Assembly: GCA_023250155.1 (NCBI GenBank)
Contig: JAHFBG010000003.1
Span: forward strand, 102,040-166,039
Length of the DNA stretch: 64,000 nucleotides
Origin: Candidatus Melainabacteria bacterium
GTDB taxonomy: Bacteria > Cyanobacteriota > Vampirovibrionia > 2-02-FULL-35-15
Direction of reading: 5' to 3'
The notes beneath the pieces are model-generated. The model made no database searches, was not told the DNA's origin, and worked only from the letters and a program-made list of their open reading frames with translations. The translations under genes were made by a program, and so were the position numbers. Positions 10,319 to 60,432 of the stretch are shown here, piece by piece. Numbering within the stretch: position 1 is the first letter of the stretch; each line of letters opens with the position of its first letter.

Positions 10319-12121
10319 TTATGCTGTCAACCGTGATTTTAACTTTTCTATAAAAGTTTCGGCTAAATCAGAGTCACCGACAGCTTCAACGATTTGTTCA
10401 TCTAACTTTTCAGAGACTCCATCACTTCCTAAAGCATTATTCAATGCCGTTTTTAAAGCAACCAAACCTGGATCATTATTTTCTATTGCGCCACTCTTTA
10501 GTTTTTCTACTAGAGCTTCTAACAAGTCTCCACCTGTATTATTGTCGCTTAAATAGCTATCAATATCTTCACCTAATTTTTCAGATGTACTATCATTATC
10601 TAAAGCAGTGTTAAAAGCTGCTTTCAAAGTAACTAAGCCTGGATCATTGTCTTCTATTTTACCGCTCTTTAGTTTTTCTACTAAAGTATCTAATAAGTCT
10701 CCACCTACACTATTGTCACTTAAATATTTATCTACATCCTTACCTAACTCTTCAGAGACAGTATCACTTTCCAGAGCATTGTTAAATGCAGTGCCTAGAG
10801 CAAGTAAGCTAGGATCATCATCTTTTATTTCACTGTTAGCAAATCTTTCTCCCAGAGCACTTAATCGATCTCCTGTAATATCATTTTCACCCAAATAGGT
10901 ACTTATATCTCCACCCAATTTTTCAGCTGTTTCATCACTACCTAGAGCATTGTTAAAAGCAGTGCCTAATGCAAGTAAGCTAGGGTCATCATCTTTTATT
11001 TCACGATTCTTAAACTTTTCCAATAAAGGACTTAGGAAGTCTTCTGCTATCGTATTATTATCAAAATAGTTTTCTAGATCTTTACCTAATTGTTCAGAGA
11101 ACTCAGTGCTTTGTAGAGCAATATTAAATGCATTTCTTAAAGCAAGCAAACTTGAAGCATCATCAGATAAGCTGGTTTTTAATTTTTCCATTAAAGCATC
11201 TATTAACTTGCTTCCTGTATCATACTCAGATACTGCATTGCTAGCCGTATTGGTTAGTGCATCAGTAAATGCTTTACTCTTAAGAGCATCAGTTGTTGTT
11301 TGTCTTAAAGCATTAACACCTTCATCAGTTACAAGATCTTTTTTGGTGAGAGAATTAACTATATTTTTTCCTATCTTCTCACCATCTCCAGAATTTTCTA
11401 ATGCATTAACTACAGTAGTTTCTAAATACTCAGTCAACTTCTTACCTCTTAAAGTTTGAACTGTAGCATCTTTTGTAGCAGCATCTATAGCAGCACCATC
11501 TTTCAATTGTTCTACAAATGGTTGTGACATTGCTGTTCTTAGTTTTTGTAATTCTTCAAGAAAAGGTTGAGCAGCTTGTTTATGAGCATTAACATGTGTT
11601 GAAATAGAATCCAATAAGTCTAAAATTGACTGGACTTGATTAGCATTTTCATTGGCTTCAAATCTAACACCTTCTTTTCTAACAAATTCTTTTAATGTCC
11701 ACTCAATACCAGGTAGATCATTTTCTTCTAACTGTTGAAGTCTTTTTACGGTAGATGAAAGTTCTTTATTTGTTTGTCTTAGGGTTAAACTTTTTCCAAT
11801 TACTTTTTTAACGGCTACTCCTAATATTCCACCAACACCAAAATCAATAGCATGATTAACAGTAATAGAAGGAAGTCCAGCTTCATCAGTATATTCTTTT
11901 GGTACAACCCTAAGATTTTCTTCTTGTCTCTTTTGTGATTTTTCAAGGGCTTTTGTATTTGTTTTATTAGTGTTTTCTTGGGGGGGAGGTGAGTTCTCTT
12001 GATTGTAATCTGTCACTAATTCTTGTGCTTTTTCTTTACCAGCTATAACTAAACTTCCACCTACTCCAAATGCTGCTAAATTAACTAGTCCATTAACTAT
12101 AAATGATCTTCTTGTTTGCAT
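10319..12121 (-). CDS. membrane-anchored repeat protein (about 56-aa tandem repeats)
   Basis: N-terminal TM helix; unit DDDPSLLALGTAFNNALGSD..EKLG.DI..YL..N...GD.L repeated about 5 times in the C-terminal half. Confidence 0.6.
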   Translation of the reverse strand: MQTRRSFIVNGLVNLAAFGVGGSLVIAGKEKAQELVTDYNQENSPPPQENTNKTNTKALEKSQKRQEENLRVVPKEYTDEAGLPSITVNHAIDFGVGGILGVAVKKVIGKSLTLRQTNKELSSTVKRLQQLEENDLPGIEWTLKEFVRKEGVRFEANENANQVQSILDLLDSISTHVNAHKQAAQPFLEELQKLRTAMSQPFVEQLKDGAAIDAATKDATVQTLRGKKLTEYLETTVVNALENSGDGEKIGKNIVNSLTKKDLVTDEGVNALRQTTTDALKSKAFTDALTNTASNAVSEYDTGSKLIDALMEKLKTSLSDDASSLLALRNAFNIALQSTEFSEQLGKDLENYFDNNTIAEDFLSPLLEKFKNREIKDDDPSLLALGTAFNNALGSDETAEKLGGDISTYLGENDITGDRLSALGERFANSEIKDDDPSLLALGTAFNNALESDTVSEELGKDVDKYLSDNSVGGDLLDTLVEKLKSGKIEDNDPGLVTLKAAFNTALDNDSTSEKLGEDIDSYLSDNNTGGDLLEALVEKLKSGAIENNDPGLVALKTALNNALGSDGVSEKLDEQIVEAVGDSDLAETFIEKLKSRLTA

Positions 12122-12294
12122 TGATATAATCTCCTTCTTAAATAAATTTCTAAATTCTACTGCTTAAGATAACAGATTTTAGTTTTCTTAATCAACAGAA
12201 AATCTAAAACAAATCTTAAAGTTTAAATTAAATGTATTGAAGATTCACGAAATTATTTATGGATCTTAAATGTTGGTCAATACGATAGACAGAA

Positions 12295-13032
12295 TTAAGA
12301 ACAGGAAGACACTAAAATTTTCTCTACTTCATTTACATCACTTGGTCTATCAATAGCAGGATAAGCTCTTTTAACAATGCCAAGTTTTATTTTAATTCCA
12401 CTTTCTAGAACACGTAATTGCTCAAGCTGTTCAGCAACCTCAAGTGATGAGGGTGGTAAAAGACTAAACTTTAAAATAGCTTCTCTTGTATAACCATAAA
12501 TTCCAATATGACGAAAATACTTTATGTCATTTCTATTGTCCCTGTTAAATGGTATCTGAGACCTTGAGAAATAAAGAGCAAAGTTGTCTTTGTCCATAAC
12601 TGTTTTTACAATATTTGGATTTGTTAAATCATCAAGCTCCGTCAAAGGTGCAACTAAACTAGACATTTGAGCTTGATTTGATATTAAGAGTTCAATAACT
12701 TTATCAATATATTCAGGTGGCATCAATGGTTCATCACCTTGAAGGTTCACTATGTATTCAATCTCAGAGTATTTTTTTACTACTTCTGTAATTCTATCTG
12801 TTCCACACTTATGATCTCTTGAAGTCATGCAGGCATCTACCTTTAAACTTTCTTTTACAAAATTTAAAATTCTTTCATCTTCAGTAGCTACAATAATTTT
12901 GTTTGCAAGCTTTGATTTCAAAGCTGCATTGACAACCCATTCAATCATAGGTTTTCCAGAGATTAAAGCTAATGGTTTTCCTGGAAACCTAGTACTTTCA
13001 AAACGAGCTGGGATTATGATAGCGGTGATCAT
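12295..13032 (-). CDS. kdsB: 3-deoxy-manno-octulosonate cytidylyltransferase (CMP-Kdo synthetase)
   Basis: IIPARFESTRFPGKPL...GTDRI...LQGDEPL motifs; 245 aa. Confidence 0.9.
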   Translation of the reverse strand: MITAIIIPARFESTRFPGKPLALISGKPMIEWVVNAALKSKLANKIIVATEDERILNFVKESLKVDACMTSRDHKCGTDRITEVVKKYSEIEYIVNLQGDEPLMPPEYIDKVIELLISNQAQMSSLVAPLTELDDLTNPNIVKTVMDKDNFALYFSRSQIPFNRDNRNDIKYFRHIGIYGYTREAILKFSLLPPSSLEVAEQLEQLRVLESGIKIKLGIVKRAYPAIDRPSDVNEVEKILVSSCS

Positions 13033-13100
13033 GTAGGTATTATAGCTTATTTGCTGAAAACTTTGATACTGTTATGCCATAGAGAGACATGATAGACAAT

Positions 13101-13532
13101 CTACTCCCCAATAATTTTAACTAATATTCTTTTATTTCTTTTACCATCAAACTCACCATAAAAGATTTGCTCCCATGTACCAAAGTCTAATTTTCCATCT
13201 GTAACTGCAACTACTACTTCCCTGCCAAATATTTGCCTTTTTAAATGTGCATCTCCATTATCTTCTCCAGTTCTATGATGTCTGTATTTTTCAACATCAT
13301 ATGGTGCAATCTTTTCAAGAAACTCATCAAAATCCTGAATTAATCCTTGCTCATCATCATTTATAAAACAACTAGCTGTAATATGCATAGGGTTTACAAG
13401 TACAAGCCCTTCTTTTATTCCAGATTTCTTTAGTATATCTTCTACCTGAGAAGTAATGTTTATGTACTCTCTTCTTTTTTTAGTGTTGATTGTTATACAT
13501 TCTCTAAATGACTTCATAGATTTATAATCCAT
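13101..13532 (-). CDS. YjbQ/UPF0047 family protein
   Basis: 143 aa with [18 protein letters not shown] and [13 protein letters not shown] segments typical of the YjbQ family. Confidence 0.75.
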
Positions 13533-14078
13533 CTATAACTGTAGAGATTGGTCTCGCCCAACCACTGCCTTAAGTTTTGGTATAGTGATGACCAGGGTAC
13601 CGTCTTCATATCTTGTTGAAAGCTTATCAGTGTTTGCATCCTGTGGTAGAGATATCATTTTTCTGAATGATCCAAAGCTTTGCTCTTTTTTATAAAATCC
13701 ATTTTTATTCTTTTCTTCATTTTGAATATTATGCTCACCGGATACTACAAGAGAATTCCCATCTACCTCAATACTGATTTTATCTTTTTCAATATCTGGA
13801 CTTGTAAGTCTTAAAATATAGTTATTTTTATATTCTTTGAATCCTGTATCATTAGATAAGTTCAATGATTTGTTTATTGCACCTTGAATTTTATTAAACT
13901 CTTCAAGTGGGTCTAAATATCCAGAATGGAATTTAAAAAGATTTTGTGGGTGATATGCTTGGAGATTATTGTCCAAAGTATTTTTATGTTGAAGCTTCAA
14001 TTCAAGCAAATAAGCTGTTTCTACAAATAGAGCTAAAGCTAAAGTAATAACTAAACCAATTAATATTTTACTTTTCAT
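13533..14078 (-). CDS. Hsp20/alpha-crystallin-domain protein with N-terminal signal/TM
   Basis: C-terminal ILRLTSPDIEKDKISIEVDGNSLVVSGEH...YEDGTLVITIPK resembles ACD fold; start set at MKSKIL (ORF 13533..14180 trimmed). Confidence 0.55.
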   Translation of the reverse strand: MKSKILIGLVITLALALFVETAYLLELKLQHKNTLDNNLQAYHPQNLFKFHSGYLDPLEEFNKIQGAINKSLNLSNDTGFKEYKNNYILRLTSPDIEKDKISIEVDGNSLVVSGEHNIQNEEKNKNGFYKKEQSFGSFRKMISLPQDANTDKLSTRYEDGTLVITIPKLKAVVGRDQSLQL

Positions 14079-14130
14079 AATAGTATTCAATTTAAAATTA
14101 TAACTGCTATTAAAAGAATTAAGAAAAAAA

Positions 14131-14409
14131 TTATTTGCCATTACATGTTGAATTAGAATAAGTAGATTTACAGTCTCCACAGCAAGAATTGTTTTTAGTG
14201 TCGATATTATTTTTTTGTACAGGTTGATTTACAATAATATTTTTTTGAGGGGGCATTTGACAAAGAAAATTAGGAGCATTATTGTTTTGACTATTAGTTT
14301 CTTGATTGTTTTGTGTTGGCAAGTTAGCTTTAGCACAATTACAAGCATAGACCCTAGAGTGGCTACTTAATAGGGAAATTAATAAAATTAAATAAACAAT
14401 AAAAGCCAT
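14131..14409 (-). CDS. secreted Cys-containing small protein
   Basis: 92 aa, signal peptide, CNCAK...CCGDCK...CNGK cysteine pairs, Asn/Gln-rich. Confidence 0.45.
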   Translation of the reverse strand: MAFIVYLILLISLLSSHSRVYACNCAKANLPTQNNQETNSQNNNAPNFLCQMPPQKNIIVNQPVQKNNIDTKNNSCCGDCKSTYSNSTCNGK

Positions 14410-14425
14410 AGGCTAAGTGTTTTTA

Positions 14426-14548
14426 TTATTTGCAGTTACAAGGGCTACAATGACAGGGACTACAAGCACAGCTATGGCTTGTGGCCAAAGTAATAACACC
14501 TGTAATCATAAAAAATGCTAATGCAAGTGGCAAGATATATTTTTGCAT
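14426..14548 (-). CDS. candidate 40-aa Cys-rich peptide (MQKYILPLALAFFMITGVITLATSHSCACSPCHCSPCNCK)
   Basis: ATG at 14548 (minus) with GAGGT 7 nt upstream, hydrophobic N-term then CACSPCHCSPCNC; stop TAA at 14428-14426; below ORF-track length cutoff. Confidence 0.35.
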   Translation of the reverse strand: MQKYILPLALAFFMITGVITLATSHSCACSPCHCSPCNCK

Positions 14549-14649
14549 TTTATTTACCTCACGCTTAGTTTCCACGACCTGCTTTGGTTATTCCCACTCT
14601 TGGTAAAGATTAGAAGAGGAATATTGAATGTAATTAAGGAATGATTAAC

Positions 14650-14687
14650 CATCAAGATAAAAAAATAAGGGCGTATAGGATACGCCC
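14650..14687 (-). terminator. intrinsic terminator-like hairpin in leader of Cys-peptide gene
   Basis: GGGCGTAT-AGG-ATACGCCC 8-bp GC-rich stem at 14669..14687 followed on the minus strand by UUAUUUUUUUAUCUUG. Confidence 0.5.
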
Positions 14688-15110
14688 TCTAGCCCTTAAT
14701 TCTTTGATGAATTGTTTGCCCAGAAAATTCCAGGTGGGTGCTCGCGAATAATAGCATCCGTTTTCGATCACGATAAGAGTGGGTTGAAACCCACCCGTAC
14801 AATGCATCGATATACTTAGCTACTAATAATACTGAACTCCCTTAACTTTTAGCTTGTAGGACAAAAAATTAAGTCAAAAAACTAAGAGCTATGTTTATAG
14901 TAGCGTAACTTGTTGATTGGATGCAAGTCTATGAAAGCTATTGCTACACCTCTCTAGAAGGGCTACCCCTTCAATCCTACAGTCTAGATAGTTCAGTGGA
15001 TTTTAATAGGTTTTAATAAAGTGTGATGATAGCCACATATAGATCTTACAAATCAGGGGTATAAGGCTAGTGTAGCTCCAAAAGAGAATAATAAAGAGGT
15101 TTTAAATAAA

Positions 15111-15347
15111 ATGCACAATTTTGTAAGCAAGTTTCTACTCCCAATTACAATATCTATTATTGTAGGGTTAATTCCATTATCTGGTTTTTGTCAGGCTTGT
15201 TCAAGTGAAGGTGAGCCTTGTGGTGATGGATTAGGTAGCTGTTGCCCAACCTATACCAATGAGGCAGGTGAATGTAAAAAACTTACATGTGCCCCTCCAG
15301 ATCATGAGAATGCAGGTACCTGTATAGAAGATGGAGTTTGCGAATAA
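15111..15347 (+). CDS. secreted Cys-rich small protein (10 Cys in 78 aa)
   Basis: signal peptide then CQACSSEGEPCGDGLGSCCP...CKKLTCAPP...CIEDGVCE; RBS-like AAAGAGG upstream. Confidence 0.5.
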   Translation: MHNFVSKFLLPITISIIVGLIPLSGFCQACSSEGEPCGDGLGSCCPTYTNEAGECKKLTCAPPDHENAGTCIEDGVCE

Positions 15348-15371
15348 ATCTATTCGTTGTTTAAATAATAT

Positions 15372-15995
15372 TTAATTTTTTTCTATATCTATTGTTTGCG
15401 CATTGACGACTTTCTTTTTTCTAAATCGTAAATTTTCAAGATTTATAACTCCACCCACACCAGACTTAATTTTTCCAAAGAGTTCTTCGCTTATCTCACT
15501 TGTGCCACGTATGGTATTTAGTGCAGTTGATTTTGCAATATTTCCAATTTTTGCACCTGTATCATAAGCGCACTGACTCAAATCTACAATTGTTCTTCCA
15601 AAAGTATTTGCAGCCTTTGTACTTACTTCATGTGTTCCTTCTATTGTTCCAAGTGTACTTGATTTTAAATTTTTCCCAATCTCATTTACAAAACCAAAAC
15701 CCACTTTAGTACTTTCAATTGAAATCTCTTTTGTTTCACCAATAGTTTTTTTTATAGAGTCTGTAACAGCACTACCAAACTCATTTGAAACTTCTTTTGT
15801 AGAGCGAATTGCAAAAACTGCAGAGTCTTTAAATGTTCCAAGAACTGATCTAAAAATTGTGCTTGAACCATCTAAAACACTGATGATTGCTCCTTGAAGT
15901 GTTTCACCTATTTGTACTGCAAAACCAGGTTCATTATTTGTGTTTTTAGTATCTTTGTTAGTTTCATTTGCTTCCATGTTTTTCTCCTTGATCAA
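15372..15995 (-). CDS. hypothetical protein with repetitive G-T/S-x motifs
   Basis: 207 aa, periodic LGT/IGE/FGR segments, no recognised domain. Confidence 0.5.
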   Translation of the reverse strand: MIKEKNMEANETNKDTKNTNNEPGFAVQIGETLQGAIISVLDGSSTIFRSVLGTFKDSAVFAIRSTKEVSNEFGSAVTDSIKKTIGETKEISIESTKVGFGFVNEIGKNLKSSTLGTIEGTHEVSTKAANTFGRTIVDLSQCAYDTGAKIGNIAKSTALNTIRGTSEISEELFGKIKSGVGGVINLENLRFRKKKVVNAQTIDIEKN

Positions 15996-16180
15996 AATCC
16001 TTCTTAATTAGTCTATGTTCTTTTTATCGTCTCTTTTAGAGAATTTTATGGTATGTAAAGATTAAATAAATCTAAAATTTAAATTTAATCGTTATCTTAA
16101 CCTGATTTTCTTAATCTCAATGCCTTAAAATCGAAATACATAACACGAAAATAATTAAGATCATATTTAAGAAAAATTAT

Positions 16181-17110
16181 ATGCAAGCACCTAGAATTAC
16201 AGACATAGTACAAAAATATAATTTGCCGCTTGGTTTTACCAAGCCAAATGGCCGAGAAGCTACCGTCAGAGATTTGTTAGAGTGGAAGGAAAAAGAAAAA
16301 CCAAATGCTATTCAACAAACATCCTATTTAACATTAGGTGGTTTTGTAGCTAGTGCAGTTGGTGGAATACTTGCATTTTTAGGTGGAAAAAACAATAGTG
16401 GTGGGCTTTTTGGTGGTTTTTTAGGTTTAGTAGGCTTAGCAGCGACGGCTATTGGTTATTATTTTTCACAAGGGATTTACAGTGTAACTAAAAGCTTGGA
16501 AAACAAATCTCAAAAACCAATACAAGAACTAATTACAGAATTAAGAAATAAAGACTTTAAAGCTGAACACAGGGTAAAGGTTATAAAAGACATAAACACC
16601 TACACAAATAAGAAAGATGCAAAAGATGTACTAATAGAATGTTTGAATGACCCATCAAAACAAGTCAGAGAAGCAGCTATTGATGTACTGCACGATATAG
16701 TAAGTGTGACTGATTTAGCTAACCTTATAAGACCTTTAAACAATCAAACTACTGCAGGTGCTAATACTGAACATGAAGAAAAGAAAAAAGATGTAGTTAA
16801 GCTTTTAACTAAATGTTTGAAAGATATAAAAGACAAAGATGCACACAAAGTAAGACTTGAAGCTATCGATGCATTAGTAAAATTAAAAGAAGATAGTGCA
16901 CTTAAACTATTTTTTGAACTATTAAATAATCCAAATGAAAATAAAGAAGTTAAAACTAAACTGCTAGAAGCCCTAGGTTCACTTGCTACTAAAGATACAA
17001 AAATTGGAAAGAAATTAATTCAAACATGCTTAAAAGAACTCCATGATGCTGAACAGGATAATGATTTAAAATCCTCTGTCAATAGCTTATTAACTCAATT
17101 TCATAGGTAA
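16181..17110 (+). CDS. HEAT/PBS-lyase-like repeat protein with N-terminal TM
   Basis: TM segment GGFVASAVGGILAFLGG then repeated EAAIDVLHDI / RLEAIDALVKL / LEALGSL HEAT-like units. Confidence 0.6.
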   Translation: MQAPRITDIVQKYNLPLGFTKPNGREATVRDLLEWKEKEKPNAIQQTSYLTLGGFVASAVGGILAFLGGKNNSGGLFGGFLGLVGLAATAIGYYFSQGIYSVTKSLENKSQKPIQELITELRNKDFKAEHRVKVIKDINTYTNKKDAKDVLIECLNDPSKQVREAAIDVLHDIVSVTDLANLIRPLNNQTTAGANTEHEEKKKDVVKLLTKCLKDIKDKDAHKVRLEAIDALVKLKEDSALKLFFELLNNPNENKEVKTKLLEALGSLATKDTKIGKKLIQTCLKELHDAEQDNDLKSSVNSLLTQFHR

Positions 17111-58597: not shown

Positions 58598-58992
58598 GTT
58601 CATTCTCATAAGTTTATACATTGTTTAAAAGTGTGTCCCCAAGAGCTAGTATCTCAATCATTTGTTGTAGGAATTTCTTCCCGTTTTCTCTAAAAGTCTC
58701 AACTTATTGAAAAATCAATACTCCAGAGAATTATCTTTTGTGCCGATTAAATAATATAGGTTTTTACTCAATAAAACTATTCATACTTTTTTTATTGAAT
58801 AAAAGACCTTTAACGAAAAGGGCAAACCACAAGTAATTGTGGGACGCAAAGCCACAAGTCCTTTAAAATCCAAGGGCCAATAAAACATTGCATGTTTATA
58901 TAGCTAGTTTGTTCAATTCTGTTTGGACAAATAAGCGATTAAAACAATGCTGGCTAGGGTGATGATAGAGGATGGTTGGGTTACCGAATTAA

Positions 58993-60432
58993 ATGGTAAA
59001 ACAAACCAGAGATAAAAGAGCAAGAATTAGAGGACGGATAACAAAAGCCTGCCTTACTCTTTTTACATTTTGTTTTGTATTTGTAAACTCTCAACTCTCA
59101 GTGCTTAGCTTTAATTATGAAGCTGATTATGATTCTATAATTGTTCATCCAAAGAAACAGCTACTAAGATCAAAAAGAATTGGTTCATTAATGTATAGAA
59201 GCGGTGTTCAAAGATTCCAAAAAATTAAAGATGATGTTTTTGTAATTCCTTTAGATACTAATAATAGAACTTCTAACAAAGAAACTATTTCACAATTACA
59301 ACAAAGTGGTTTATATGATTTAGTAGAGCCCGACTATAAGTTTTCTCTCGATCAAGAACCCACTGATAGAAAATATGTAAGAATTGCTACTCATAAAGCT
59401 GTAATAGAAGTACCGGGCAACAATTCAGAAGTACCGGGCAACAATTCAGAAGCACCAAGCATCAATTCTCCTGAGATAACAAATACTAATTTAAGTATTA
59501 ATAAGGTTCAAGAAATTACACCTAATGATAAAGGGTTTTCTTCACAGTACTACTTAAGAGAAATCAATGCAACAAAAGCATGGAATACAGCTCTTGGAAA
59601 TGAAATATCAGTTGGCGTGCTGGATACAGGTGTTGATGCAAATCACCCTGATTTAATTGGTAAAGTAAGTGGTGGGATTAATTTAAATGATCAGGATGTA
59701 AAAGATACTATAGGGCATGGAACAAGTGTGGCAGGAATAATAGCTGCAAACACTAATAACAATCAAGGAATTGCAGGGATAGGATGGAATACAAAAATAA
59801 TCTCAATGCGGGTTACAGATGATGTAGGACAGGCAAGAGTATCTACAGTAGTTACAGCATTAGATGAAGCACATAAGAGAGGGATAAAAATTGTTCAACT
59901 TAGCTTGAGTACAAATCAATTTTCTCAAACTTTAAAAAGAGCTATTGAAGAAGCACAAAGCAATGGTATTTTAATTATCTCTACAGGTGGCAATACAGGC
60001 GTAGAGGAAATCCGTTATCCAGCTGCATTTGATGGAGTAATTGGTGTAGGAGCAGTTGGTGAAACAAAAGAGCTTGAATATTATAGTACTACGGGTGATC
60101 ATATTAGCCTTGTAGCACCGGGCTCTGATATTTATACTACAGCTATAGATTCCAGCTATGACAAAGTTACTGGAACATCCTTTGCTGCTCCACAAGTAGC
60201 AGGTGCTGCTGCTTTAGTCTGGTCTATTTCACCAAACTTAACAAACAATGAAGTAAGAGATATTCTTCTTAAATCCGCTGATGATCTAGGACAAGAAGGT
60301 AAAGATAAAGAGTTTGGTTATGGACATTTAAATATTGAGAAGGCAGTAGAGTTAGCAAAAGGTAATGATTCACCACAGTCCAATCCCACAACAACAAATT
60401 CAATAGAAATAAAATCGTGGATTAAGAGATAA
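58993..60432 (+). CDS. subtilisin-like serine peptidase (S8)
   Basis: Asp VGVLDTGVD, His GHGTSVAGII, Ser GTSFAAPQVAGAAAL catalytic triad motifs; 21-nt tandem VPGNNSE repeat at 59411..59452. Confidence 0.9.
   Translation: MVKQTRDKRARIRGRITKACLTLFTFCFVFVNSQLSVLSFNYEADYDSIIVHPKKQLLRSKRIGSLMYRSGVQRFQKIKDDVFVIPLDTNNRTSNKETISQLQQSGLYDLVEPDYKFSLDQEPTDRKYVRIATHKAVIEVPGNNSEVPGNNSEAPSINSPEITNTNLSINKVQEITPNDKGFSSQYYLREINATKAWNTALGNEISVGVLDTGVDANHPDLIGKVSGGINLNDQDVKDTIGHGTSVAGIIAANTNNNQGIAGIGWNTKIISMRVTDDVGQARVSTVVTALDEAHKRGIKIVQLSLSTNQFSQTLKRAIEEAQSNGILIISTGGNTGVEEIRYPAAFDGVIGVGAVGETKELEYYSTTGDHISLVAPGSDIYTTAIDSSYDKVTGTSFAAPQVAGAAALVWSISPNLTNNEVRDILLKSADDLGQEGKDKEFGYGHLNIEKAVELAKGNDSPQSNPTTTNSIEIKSWIKR

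Follow-up and report, generated by a model that had tools for sequence, protein, structure and literature searches.

A structured minus-strand segment in a 64,000-nucleotide stretch of a Candidatus Melainabacteria genome (assembly GCA_023250155.1, contig JAHFBG010000003.1, positions 102,040 to 166,039; the window, to which all positions below refer) is most likely a divergent 6S RNA gene, which would stand alone and end at its own terminator. The segment precedes a putative operon encoding a 40-aa cysteine-rich peptide (pep40), a 92-aa cysteine-containing protein (p92), an Hsp20/alpha-crystallin protein and a YjbQ/UPF0047 protein, and it is divergent to the gene of a further small cysteine-rich protein (p78). 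An earlier interpretation made from the letters of this region (the sequence-only reading) had described a single divergent peptide locus arranged around a riboswitch or attenuator leader. We consider it quite probable that two independent units, the 6S gene and the peptide operon, were joined here by a lineage-specific rearrangement, and that the peptide operon constitutes an envelope metal-stress module.

The comparisons below draw on the metagenome-assembled genome (MAG) GCA_016201905.1 (locus L082), on the Melainabacteria MAG GCA_023250175.1 (locus L193 on its contig 25, loci L198 and L199 on its contig 2), and on further loci including L194, the metagenome counterpart of L193. The pep40 family is represented by six DNA contexts, namely the window, L082, L097, L138, L198, and L200.

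A candidate 6S RNA gene

In a permissive Rfam scan of 3.5 kb, the 6S model RF00013 matches 14678..14894 on the minus strand over model positions 1-187, with 38.5 bits and an E value of 1.5e-5 (2.8e-4 over the whole window, where this is the sole 6S candidate). The predicted fold of 14655..14900 (minus strand) reaches -82.9 kcal/mol, against -50.7 +/- 4.4 kcal/mol for shuffled sequences (z = -7.4), and this excess is limited to the 6S element, as z is -0.5 for 14549..14666 and +0.4 for the 5' region of p78. Both the minimum free energy (MFE) fold and the consensus fold reproduce the Rfam helices, comprising a 16-bp closing stem (14890..14874 with 14707..14691), an 11-bp bubble-adjacent stem, and a GGGAG/CACCC stem, so that the long closing stem, large central bubble, and internal stem-loop of the 6S architecture are all present. 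The 5' bubble strand occupies 14858..14842 and the 3' strand, which includes a near-consensus CACCCACCUGGAA, lies within 14743..14714; the strands left unpaired in the 6S folds are UACAAGCUAAAAGUUAA and ACCUGGAAUUUUCU. On the 3' side of the closing stem, the terminator folds in the MFE structure into a hairpin of its own, with a 10-bp stem (GGGCGTAT/ATACGCCC, five G-C pairs) and a run of seven T; no other terminator-like site was found in 13900..15500. The sequence-only reading was right that a minus-strand stem with a U-tract precedes the peptide at roughly 100 nt: the terminator ends about 110 nt upstream of the pep40 ATG.

A homologue of the element, reached by way of the relative of p78, is found in L193/L194, where it scores 46.1 bits (E 1.7e-6). 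The window and L193 elements share about 90% identity in the bubble strands and internal stems and differ in the closing stem; the apical hairpin of the window element is also longer than that of L193, by 24 nt inserted within 14797..14771. All 57 of the 57 pairs of the consensus structure are standard in both sequences, with four compensatory and 12 one-sided changes, compared with 39-51% paired positions in slid-register controls. The block TTACGCTACTAT is identical in L193, immediately upstream of its 6S element, and we infer that the stretch 14897..14926 functions as the 6S promoter; its -35-like hexamer TTGCAT was not reported by a consensus scan because only three of its six positions match. 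A conserved promoter-like block and an intrinsic terminator, both judged at the level of consensus, would therefore delimit the element as an independent transcription unit.

Several observations weigh against this assignment. The score of 38.5 bits does not reach the gathering score of 46.4 set by the curators, and it falls to 32.6 bits with a local match (model 12-175) when the terminator is excluded from the rescan, the match being only local because the AU-rich closing stem lies in a different register from that of the model. Of 500 shuffles made as a control for covariation, 18 attain the level observed, and the conservation of the structure comes from two independent sequences, which is thin support.

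Compared with known 6S RNAs (RF00013; cyanobacterial 6S/SsaA), the window element has the same size of about 200 nt, the same succession of closing stem, bubble, and internal stem, the CACCCACCUGGAA motif, a full-length alignment, and a stand-alone gene. It differs in the AU-rich closing stem with its shifted register, in the 24-nt apical extension, in scores that remain under the gathering threshold in both the window and its relative, and in having a small cysteine-rich exported protein as gene neighbour. By analogy with characterised 6S RNAs, it would imitate an open promoter and tie up the housekeeping holoenzyme of RNA polymerase. Our literature search found no paper joining 6S RNA and Melainabacteria.

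Relationship between the RNA and the peptide operon

The arrangement in GCA_023250175.1, the closest relative, separates the two units. There, the 6S-p78 pair resides on contig 25, in the same divergent orientation as in the window (also in L194), whereas the genes for pep42 (the pep40 homologue), an 89-aa p92 homologue (p89), Hsp20, and YjbQ follow one another on contig 2, behind a CBS-domain gene. The conserved partner of the 6S RNA is therefore p78, and its adjacency to pep40 is specific to the window lineage; the idea of one divergent peptide locus is not supported by this comparison, since p78 and the pep40 operon are unlinked in the relative. Upstream of the peptide in L082, L097, L138, L198, and L200, neither 6S nor any other RNA family is matched. 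At GTDB loci with KdsB, which are not syntenic with the window region, BLAST recovered neither the RNA nor the neighbouring genes.

These results bear directly on the leader proposed earlier, a cis-regulatory and possibly metal-sensing riboswitch or attenuator whose terminator would control the peptide operon. Its appeal is geometric, as a strong hairpin with a U-tract precedes the peptide on the same strand and no good independent promoter is seen between the terminator and the pep40 open reading frame (ORF) in the window. Against it, the segment is matched by the whole 6S model, and no riboswitch or leader family is matched at E <= 1 in 13000..16500; the covariance-model search that had been suggested for riboswitch families, metal-sensing ones above all, returned RF00013 instead. 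The only riboswitch of the whole window, of the c-di-GMP-I type, lies at 58811. Moreover, the element is conserved with p78 and sits on a separate contig from the peptide in the closest relative, five other peptide loci lack it, and upstream regulation in relatives appears to use a protein operator (see below). We regard a leader function as very improbable. Of the conservation that the sequence-only reading had anticipated for both the 40-aa ORF and its leader, the former is seen and the latter is not, as the RNA is retained with p78.

A second possibility accepts the 6S RNA and couples the peptide operon to it, through terminator read-through or processing of a longer precursor, in replacement of a CsoR-controlled promoter. 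In the E. coli ssrS-ygfA unit, a longer 6S precursor is processed. The region 14549..14658 of the window contains neither the CsoR-type palindrome nor the good TATAAT box seen in relatives, homology to L198 fades just upstream of the pep40 ribosome-binding site, 14549..14666 offers only weak promoter-like hexamers, and the ORFs are nevertheless unbroken, recurring in identical form in at least four metagenome samples. On the other side, the terminator is canonical and strong (10-bp stem, run of seven T), and a weak sigma-70 promoter or a promoter of an unrecognised type may serve the operon. Such coupling seems to us unlikely, and we retain the reading of two independent units brought together by rearrangement.

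Layout of the locus

The features are listed in Table 1. The four ORFs that the sequence-only reading had named (40-aa, 92-aa, Hsp20-like, and 78-aa) are present where it placed them, and the 562-nt spacer 14549..15110 is, as it had noted, GC-richer than its surroundings (0.35-0.39 against 0.23-0.33). A strong hydrophobic N-terminal segment is found in pep40, p92, the Hsp20 protein, and p78 alike. The start of p92 lies 16 nt past the pep40 stop codon; in the mechanical ORF list pep40 appears as a 49-aa frame starting at an upstream GTG. Public gene calls place the start of the Hsp20 gene at 14141 or 14180 rather than 14078, and use for YjbQ a start codon other than that of the 143-aa form.

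Table 1. Features of the peptide and 6S region, in window coordinates
Feature	Position	Strand	Details
YjbQ/UPF0047 protein	13101..13517	-	PF01894, E 3e-37; last conserved gene of the peptide module
Hsp20/alpha-crystallin protein	13533..14078	-	PF00011, E 3e-18
p92, 92-aa ORF	14131..14409	-	7 Cys; hydrophobic N-terminus; predicted exported; N/Q-rich
pep40, 40-aa ORF	14426..14548	-	MQKYILPLALAFFMITGVITLATSHSCACSPCHCSPCNCK
5' region proper of the peptide operon	14549..14658	-	Unstructured; Shine-Dalgarno GAGG at 14560..14557
Intrinsic terminator of the candidate 6S RNA	14659..14689	-	GAGGGCGTAT-CCT-ATACGCCCTT, then ATTTTTTT
Candidate 6S RNA (SsrS-type) body, ~205 nt	14690..14894	-	RF00013 match, fold, and homologue
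6S promoter-like region	14897..14926	-	-35-like TTGCAT 14926..14921, 18-nt spacer, -10-like TACTAT 14902..14897
p78 promoter block	15022..15065	+	Palindrome TGTGATGATAGCCACA 15022..15037, 22 nt, TATAAG 15060..15065; same or almost the same in L193
p78, 78-aa ORF	15111..15347	+	9 Cys; predicted exported

The stretch 11539..16406 is also on record as contig k141_4948173 of the ENA sample ERZ27280116, with no mismatch over 4868 nt, and proteins identical to those of the window occur in ERZ27280021, ERZ27276474, ERZ27296333, and SRR14366772. The GCA_023250175.1 type is found alongside in ERZ27296333 and SRR14366772.

The pep40 peptide family

Seven homologues of pep40, of 40-42 aa, were identified (L082, L097, L138, P0009, P0010, P0011, and P0013), all with the same architecture: a positively charged N-terminus, about 20 hydrophobic residues, and a 14-residue CxCxPCxCxPCxCK cluster, which in pep40 is the C-terminal CACSPCHCSPCNCK. 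Six Cys and two Pro are invariant across the homologues, the Cys lying within the last 14-16 residues of each member (CxCxPCxCxPCxC). The homologue in L198, the 42-aa pep42 (P0009), is 72% identical to pep40, with a ratio of nonsynonymous to synonymous substitution rates (dN/dS) of 0.39. Gene finders skip most copies of the family, a word-indexed search with pep40 returned no homologues, so that an exhaustive HMMER search was needed, and a metagenome search for the pattern CxCxPCHCxPCxC gave 106 stretches; of those examined, nearly all proved to be artefacts of simple repeats in frames that do not code, and L097 and L138 were the only true homologues from that search. Taken together, the comparisons support pep40 as a real, conserved, unannotated micro-protein. 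The same can be said of the small cysteine-rich secreted products as a class, for which the sequence-only reading holds: each of the three small ORFs has counterparts in relatives that keep the Cys unchanged, dN/dS is under 1 in every case, and all three products are predicted to be exported. For pep40, the N-terminus is predicted to be either a signal peptide or an N-in/C-out anchor, with the Cys cluster facing the periplasm.

In relatives the peptide retains Hsp20 and YjbQ as companions, and p92 in L198; the RNA is not among them. Homologues of the Hsp20 gene come after the peptide gene in L082 and L198, 84% identical YjbQ copies are placed after the peptide gene or the Hsp20 gene in L082 and L138, and in L198 a 138-aa YjbQ gene comes directly after that of Hsp20.

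Three further observations concern this family and its motif. Synonymous divergence (dS) between pep40 and its counterpart at L198 2205..2333 is 0.38, compared with 1.3-1.6 for p92, Hsp20, and YjbQ in the same genome pair, which could be small-sample noise, additional nucleotide-level constraint, or recent exchange. At L198 2340..2385 (plus strand), pep42 is followed by a terminator-like hairpin of its own (AAAGAGCAT...ATGCTCTTT with a T-run), a 230-nt spacer, and the p92 homologue. A metagenome ORF at L102 1224..1373 (plus strand; MKAQIKISSDSQNSKCNCNPCHCDPCTCSTGCSCKDCQCSPCDC) carries the same CxCxPCHCxPCxC motif without a signal peptide or a family match, and may encode a cytosolic metallothionein-like protein.

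The spacing of the Cys residues had been considered compatible with a precursor of a ribosomally synthesised and post-translationally modified peptide (RiPP), in which enzymes would modify the Cys-rich core. The shortness of pep40 and its Cys-rich C-terminal core fit such a precursor. However, no recognisable modifying enzyme, protease, or dedicated exporter lies beside the peptide in any of the six contexts, the N-terminus is positively charged, hydrophobic, and signal- or anchor-like rather than a typical leader, and the genes conserved beside the peptide encode Hsp20, YjbQ, and a CsoR-family repressor. A RiPP precursor is accordingly a scarcely credible identity for this peptide, and the reading of pep40 as a metal-related envelope peptide is preferred.

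That preferred reading has parallels among bacterial metallothioneins such as SmtA/BmtA and the mycobacterial MymT, which are likewise very small and Cys-rich and carry CxC and CHC motifs. The regulator of MymT is RicR, a paralogue of CsoR. The known metallothioneins of bacteria reside in the cytosol, whereas the pep40 cluster is predicted to be extracytoplasmic, is carried on a signal or anchor segment, and spans only 14 residues. Pfam and NCBIfam contain no model that matches pep40 at E <= 0.01, and the peptide is therefore not filed in any known metallothionein family. As with pep40, MymT is a small ORF that had been missed in annotation, and it is needed for copper resistance (PMC7558416).

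A CsoR-type operator and repressor in relatives

A role in metal handling is suggested by the genes and DNA around the peptide in relatives. In L082, L097, and L138, a repressor of the CsoR/RcnR family (PF02583) is divergently adjacent to the peptide gene, and a PF02583 gene also adjoins the gene for the Hsp20 homologue P0003. The L082 repressor shows the fingerprint H3...C36...H61...C65, read from its sequence; this C-H-C set is that of Cu(I)-CsoR and also of the Ni-sensing InrS, and is unlike that of CstR and FrmR (PMC5016687, PMC8643695, PMC7558416). Against the NCBIfam models for RicR, FrmR, and RcnR, the L082 repressor gives only sub-threshold matches, far below the cut-offs. Downstream of the repressor gene, L082 carries a gene for a His/Cys-rich 303-aa membrane protein, followed by OEP, CzcB, and ACR_tran (resistance-nodulation-division, RND) efflux genes.

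In each of L082, L097, L138, L198/L199, and L200, the locus contains a single C-tract/G-tract palindrome, placed 46-100 nt ahead of the peptide start. It abuts a GGGTATAAT box in L082, L198, and L200, and the nearest TATAAT lies about 10-11 nt downstream of it in L097 and L138. Examples are ATACCCCCTAGTGGGGGGTAT (L082) and GACCCCCCTGGATGGGGTC. In their TAC-C-tract...G-tract-GTA form, these palindromes resemble published CsoR type-2 operators, whose consensus is ATATACCCCTNAGGGGTATAT and which include the Streptomyces lividans copZA1 site GGGTACCCCCTAGGGGTATAC (PMC3902906). In L198 and L200 the palindrome is present without an adjacent repressor gene, which implies control in trans. The arrangement in relatives thus shares with CsoR/RicR copper regulons a divergent PF02583 repressor with the C36-H61-C65 set and a palindrome at or just upstream of the -10 element; it differs in its targets, which are usually copZA-type ATPases and chaperones and here are a micro-peptide, a predicted membrane-anchored Hsp20, and YjbQ. 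On this basis the pep40 family would belong to a CsoR-type, most likely copper, regulon, and pep40 probably handles metals.

Proteins of about 300 aa rich in His and Cys are encoded at L082 4353..5264 and at L085 2085..2978 (both minus strand), with HESHTDHTHTEECNHDE and a C-terminal CACCGAPVC or CSCCGSPVC. They have hydrophobic segments and no Pfam or NCBIfam family, lie beside the repressor or Hsp20 gene and ahead of the RND genes, and may represent an uncharacterised metal-handling membrane protein. An L185 ORF with the N-terminal sequence CDCSPCHCAPCRC was considered as a MelC1-like copper chaperone and dropped, as it has no Pfam match.

The window copy lacks these surroundings. Nowhere in its 64 kb is there a C-tract/G-tract palindrome, a PF02583 gene, or a homologue of the L082 genes for the CsoR-family repressor, the 303-aa protein, the MetA-like protein, OEP, and CzcB, in which respect it departs from CsoR/RicR regulons, and only homology therefore connects it with metals. 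The metallothionein-like metal binder proposed by the sequence-only reading gains indirect support from the CsoR-type operators and adjacent repressors of relatives, and the absence of both from the window counts against it. Other points also weigh against a copper-binding role. The His3 of the L082 repressor makes an InrS/RcnR-like Ni/Co sensor possible, and persulfide or formaldehyde is the signal for other members of the CsoR family (PMC5016687, PMC8643695). The neighbours of the peptide in L198 and L200 are different, namely CBS-domain, pst, and ATP synthase genes. The His within the Cys cluster varies, being N in P0009 and Q in P0011, and if pep40 is exported, its six Cys might form disulfides instead.

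Several of these points would equally suit a peptide that is real and no chelator, such as a disulfide-rich exported peptide, a lipoprotein-like anchor, a small membrane subunit, or a redox or sulfide factor under a CstR- or FrmR-like sensor. The persulfide- and formaldehyde-sensing members of the repressor family, the variable His, the contexts of L198 and L200 (which are not metal-specific), and the missing operator of the window copy are all in keeping with it. Yet the repressor has the C-H-C set of Cu(I)-CsoR/InrS and not the C-x-C of CstR, the operators belong to CsoR type 2, the L082 repressor is flanked by the His/Cys-rich membrane protein and by RND/CzcB/OEP genes, and a 14-residue stretch holding six Cys at CxC spacing is metallothionein-like (PMC7558416). 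We consider a non-chelating role fairly unlikely, though to be kept in mind, and continue with metal handling as the preferred function.

A proposed envelope metal-stress module

In the model that we favour, the order pep40, p92, membrane-anchored Hsp20, and YjbQ would define an envelope metal-stress module. The six thiolates of pep40 would bind a thiophilic metal, most likely Cu(I), and the anchored small heat-shock protein would hold envelope proteins damaged by the metal. Where the 6S gene now adjoins the operon, the window genome would have lost the operator and the good -10 box; if so, expression of the pep40 operon would depend on a weak local promoter, on transcription continuing past the 6S terminator, or on both. 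The most specific version of this proposal, in which the pep40 family is a new class of exported or anchored mini-metallothionein of Vampirovibrionia, with its Cys6 cluster carried on a signal or anchor segment, within a CsoR-controlled envelope copper-stress module together with Hsp20 and YjbQ, and the window copy has lost its metal-responsive promoter and been rewired to the 6S unit, is put forward tentatively, as a possibility that we hold to be less than even.

Partner proteins and p78

The Cys residues of p92 fall in the motifs YACNCA...FLCQMP...SCCGDC. Its homologue in L198 (89 aa) occupies the same operon position with 38% identity (E 2e-12) and keeps YACNCA, FLCQMP, and SCCGxC; no family model for p92 exists in Pfam or NCBIfam. 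Relative to the closest relatives, dN/dS is 0.51 for p92, 0.21 for Hsp20, and 0.05 for YjbQ. The strongest hydrophobic window of the Hsp20 protein covers residues 5-19. The window Hsp20 and its homologues P0002-P0006 all open with a conserved hydrophobic segment, MKDKILIGLIIILVLALFVETAYLL, which is unusual for the Hsp20 family and suggests that the small heat-shock protein of this clade is membrane-anchored or exported.

By its gene arrangement, p78 is divergent from the 6S gene and separate from the peptide operon. The sequence-only reading correctly saw a 78-aa secreted cysteine-rich protein and counted one Cys too many, as there are nine rather than 10. Eight of these lie in the predicted mature part with the spacing C-x6-C-x6-CC-x9-C-x4-C-x10-C-x5-C, and no match was found in Pfam or NCBIfam. 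The sole relative is P0008 (L193, L194), with 61% identity and all nine Cys conserved, so that two sequence clusters are known; dN/dS between p78 and its closest relative is 0.23. An AlphaFold2 model built from the two-sequence alignment has a mean predicted local distance difference test (pLDDT) score of 60.8, too poor for a fold search. The spacing is presumably knottin- or inhibitor-cystine-knot-like, a resemblance that does not establish membership: p78 shares with knottins a signal peptide, the C...C...CC...C...C order, and a mature domain of about 50 residues, and differs from them in having no family match. Both the sequence of TGTGATGATAGCCACA and its position relative to TATAAG are ones that we take to resemble a class II activator site of the CRP/FNR family (TGTGA-N6-TCACA), which suggests that the regulation of p78 is separate from that of the 6S gene.

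Other features of the window

Two features elsewhere in the window were recorded. A 600-aa protein encoded at 10319..12121 (minus strand) consists of units of about 55 aa repeated in tandem (DDPSLLALGTAFNNAL...EKLG.D...YL) behind a hydrophobic N-terminal segment, without a convincing Pfam family. The c-di-GMP-I riboswitch (RF01051) at 58811..~58989 (plus strand) scores 58.8 bits, where the gathering score is 35, and RF03167 also matches there with 55.4 bits; the c-di-GMP-I match extends over 178 nt against a model of 80-87 nt, which indicates a large insertion. Directly downstream lies the gene for a 479-aa subtilase-family protein (Peptidase_S8; 58993..60432).

Implications

Vampirovibrionia are a poorly sampled sister lineage of Cyanobacteria, and the RNA described here is in itself an ordinary finding. 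This probable, divergent 6S RNA of the group falls just under the Rfam threshold, and the window and L193/L194 sequences could be used to extend the seed of the family. The peptide part offers a concrete and testable lead, with a regulatory signature made up of an operator of CsoR type 2 and a divergently encoded repressor. None of the findings is revolutionary. If the mini-metallothionein proposal is true, pep40 would be the first extracytoplasmic bacterial metallothionein-like peptide. If pep40 binds copper outside the cytoplasm, it would represent a new component of bacterial metal homeostasis and would tie small heat-shock proteins to envelope metal stress.

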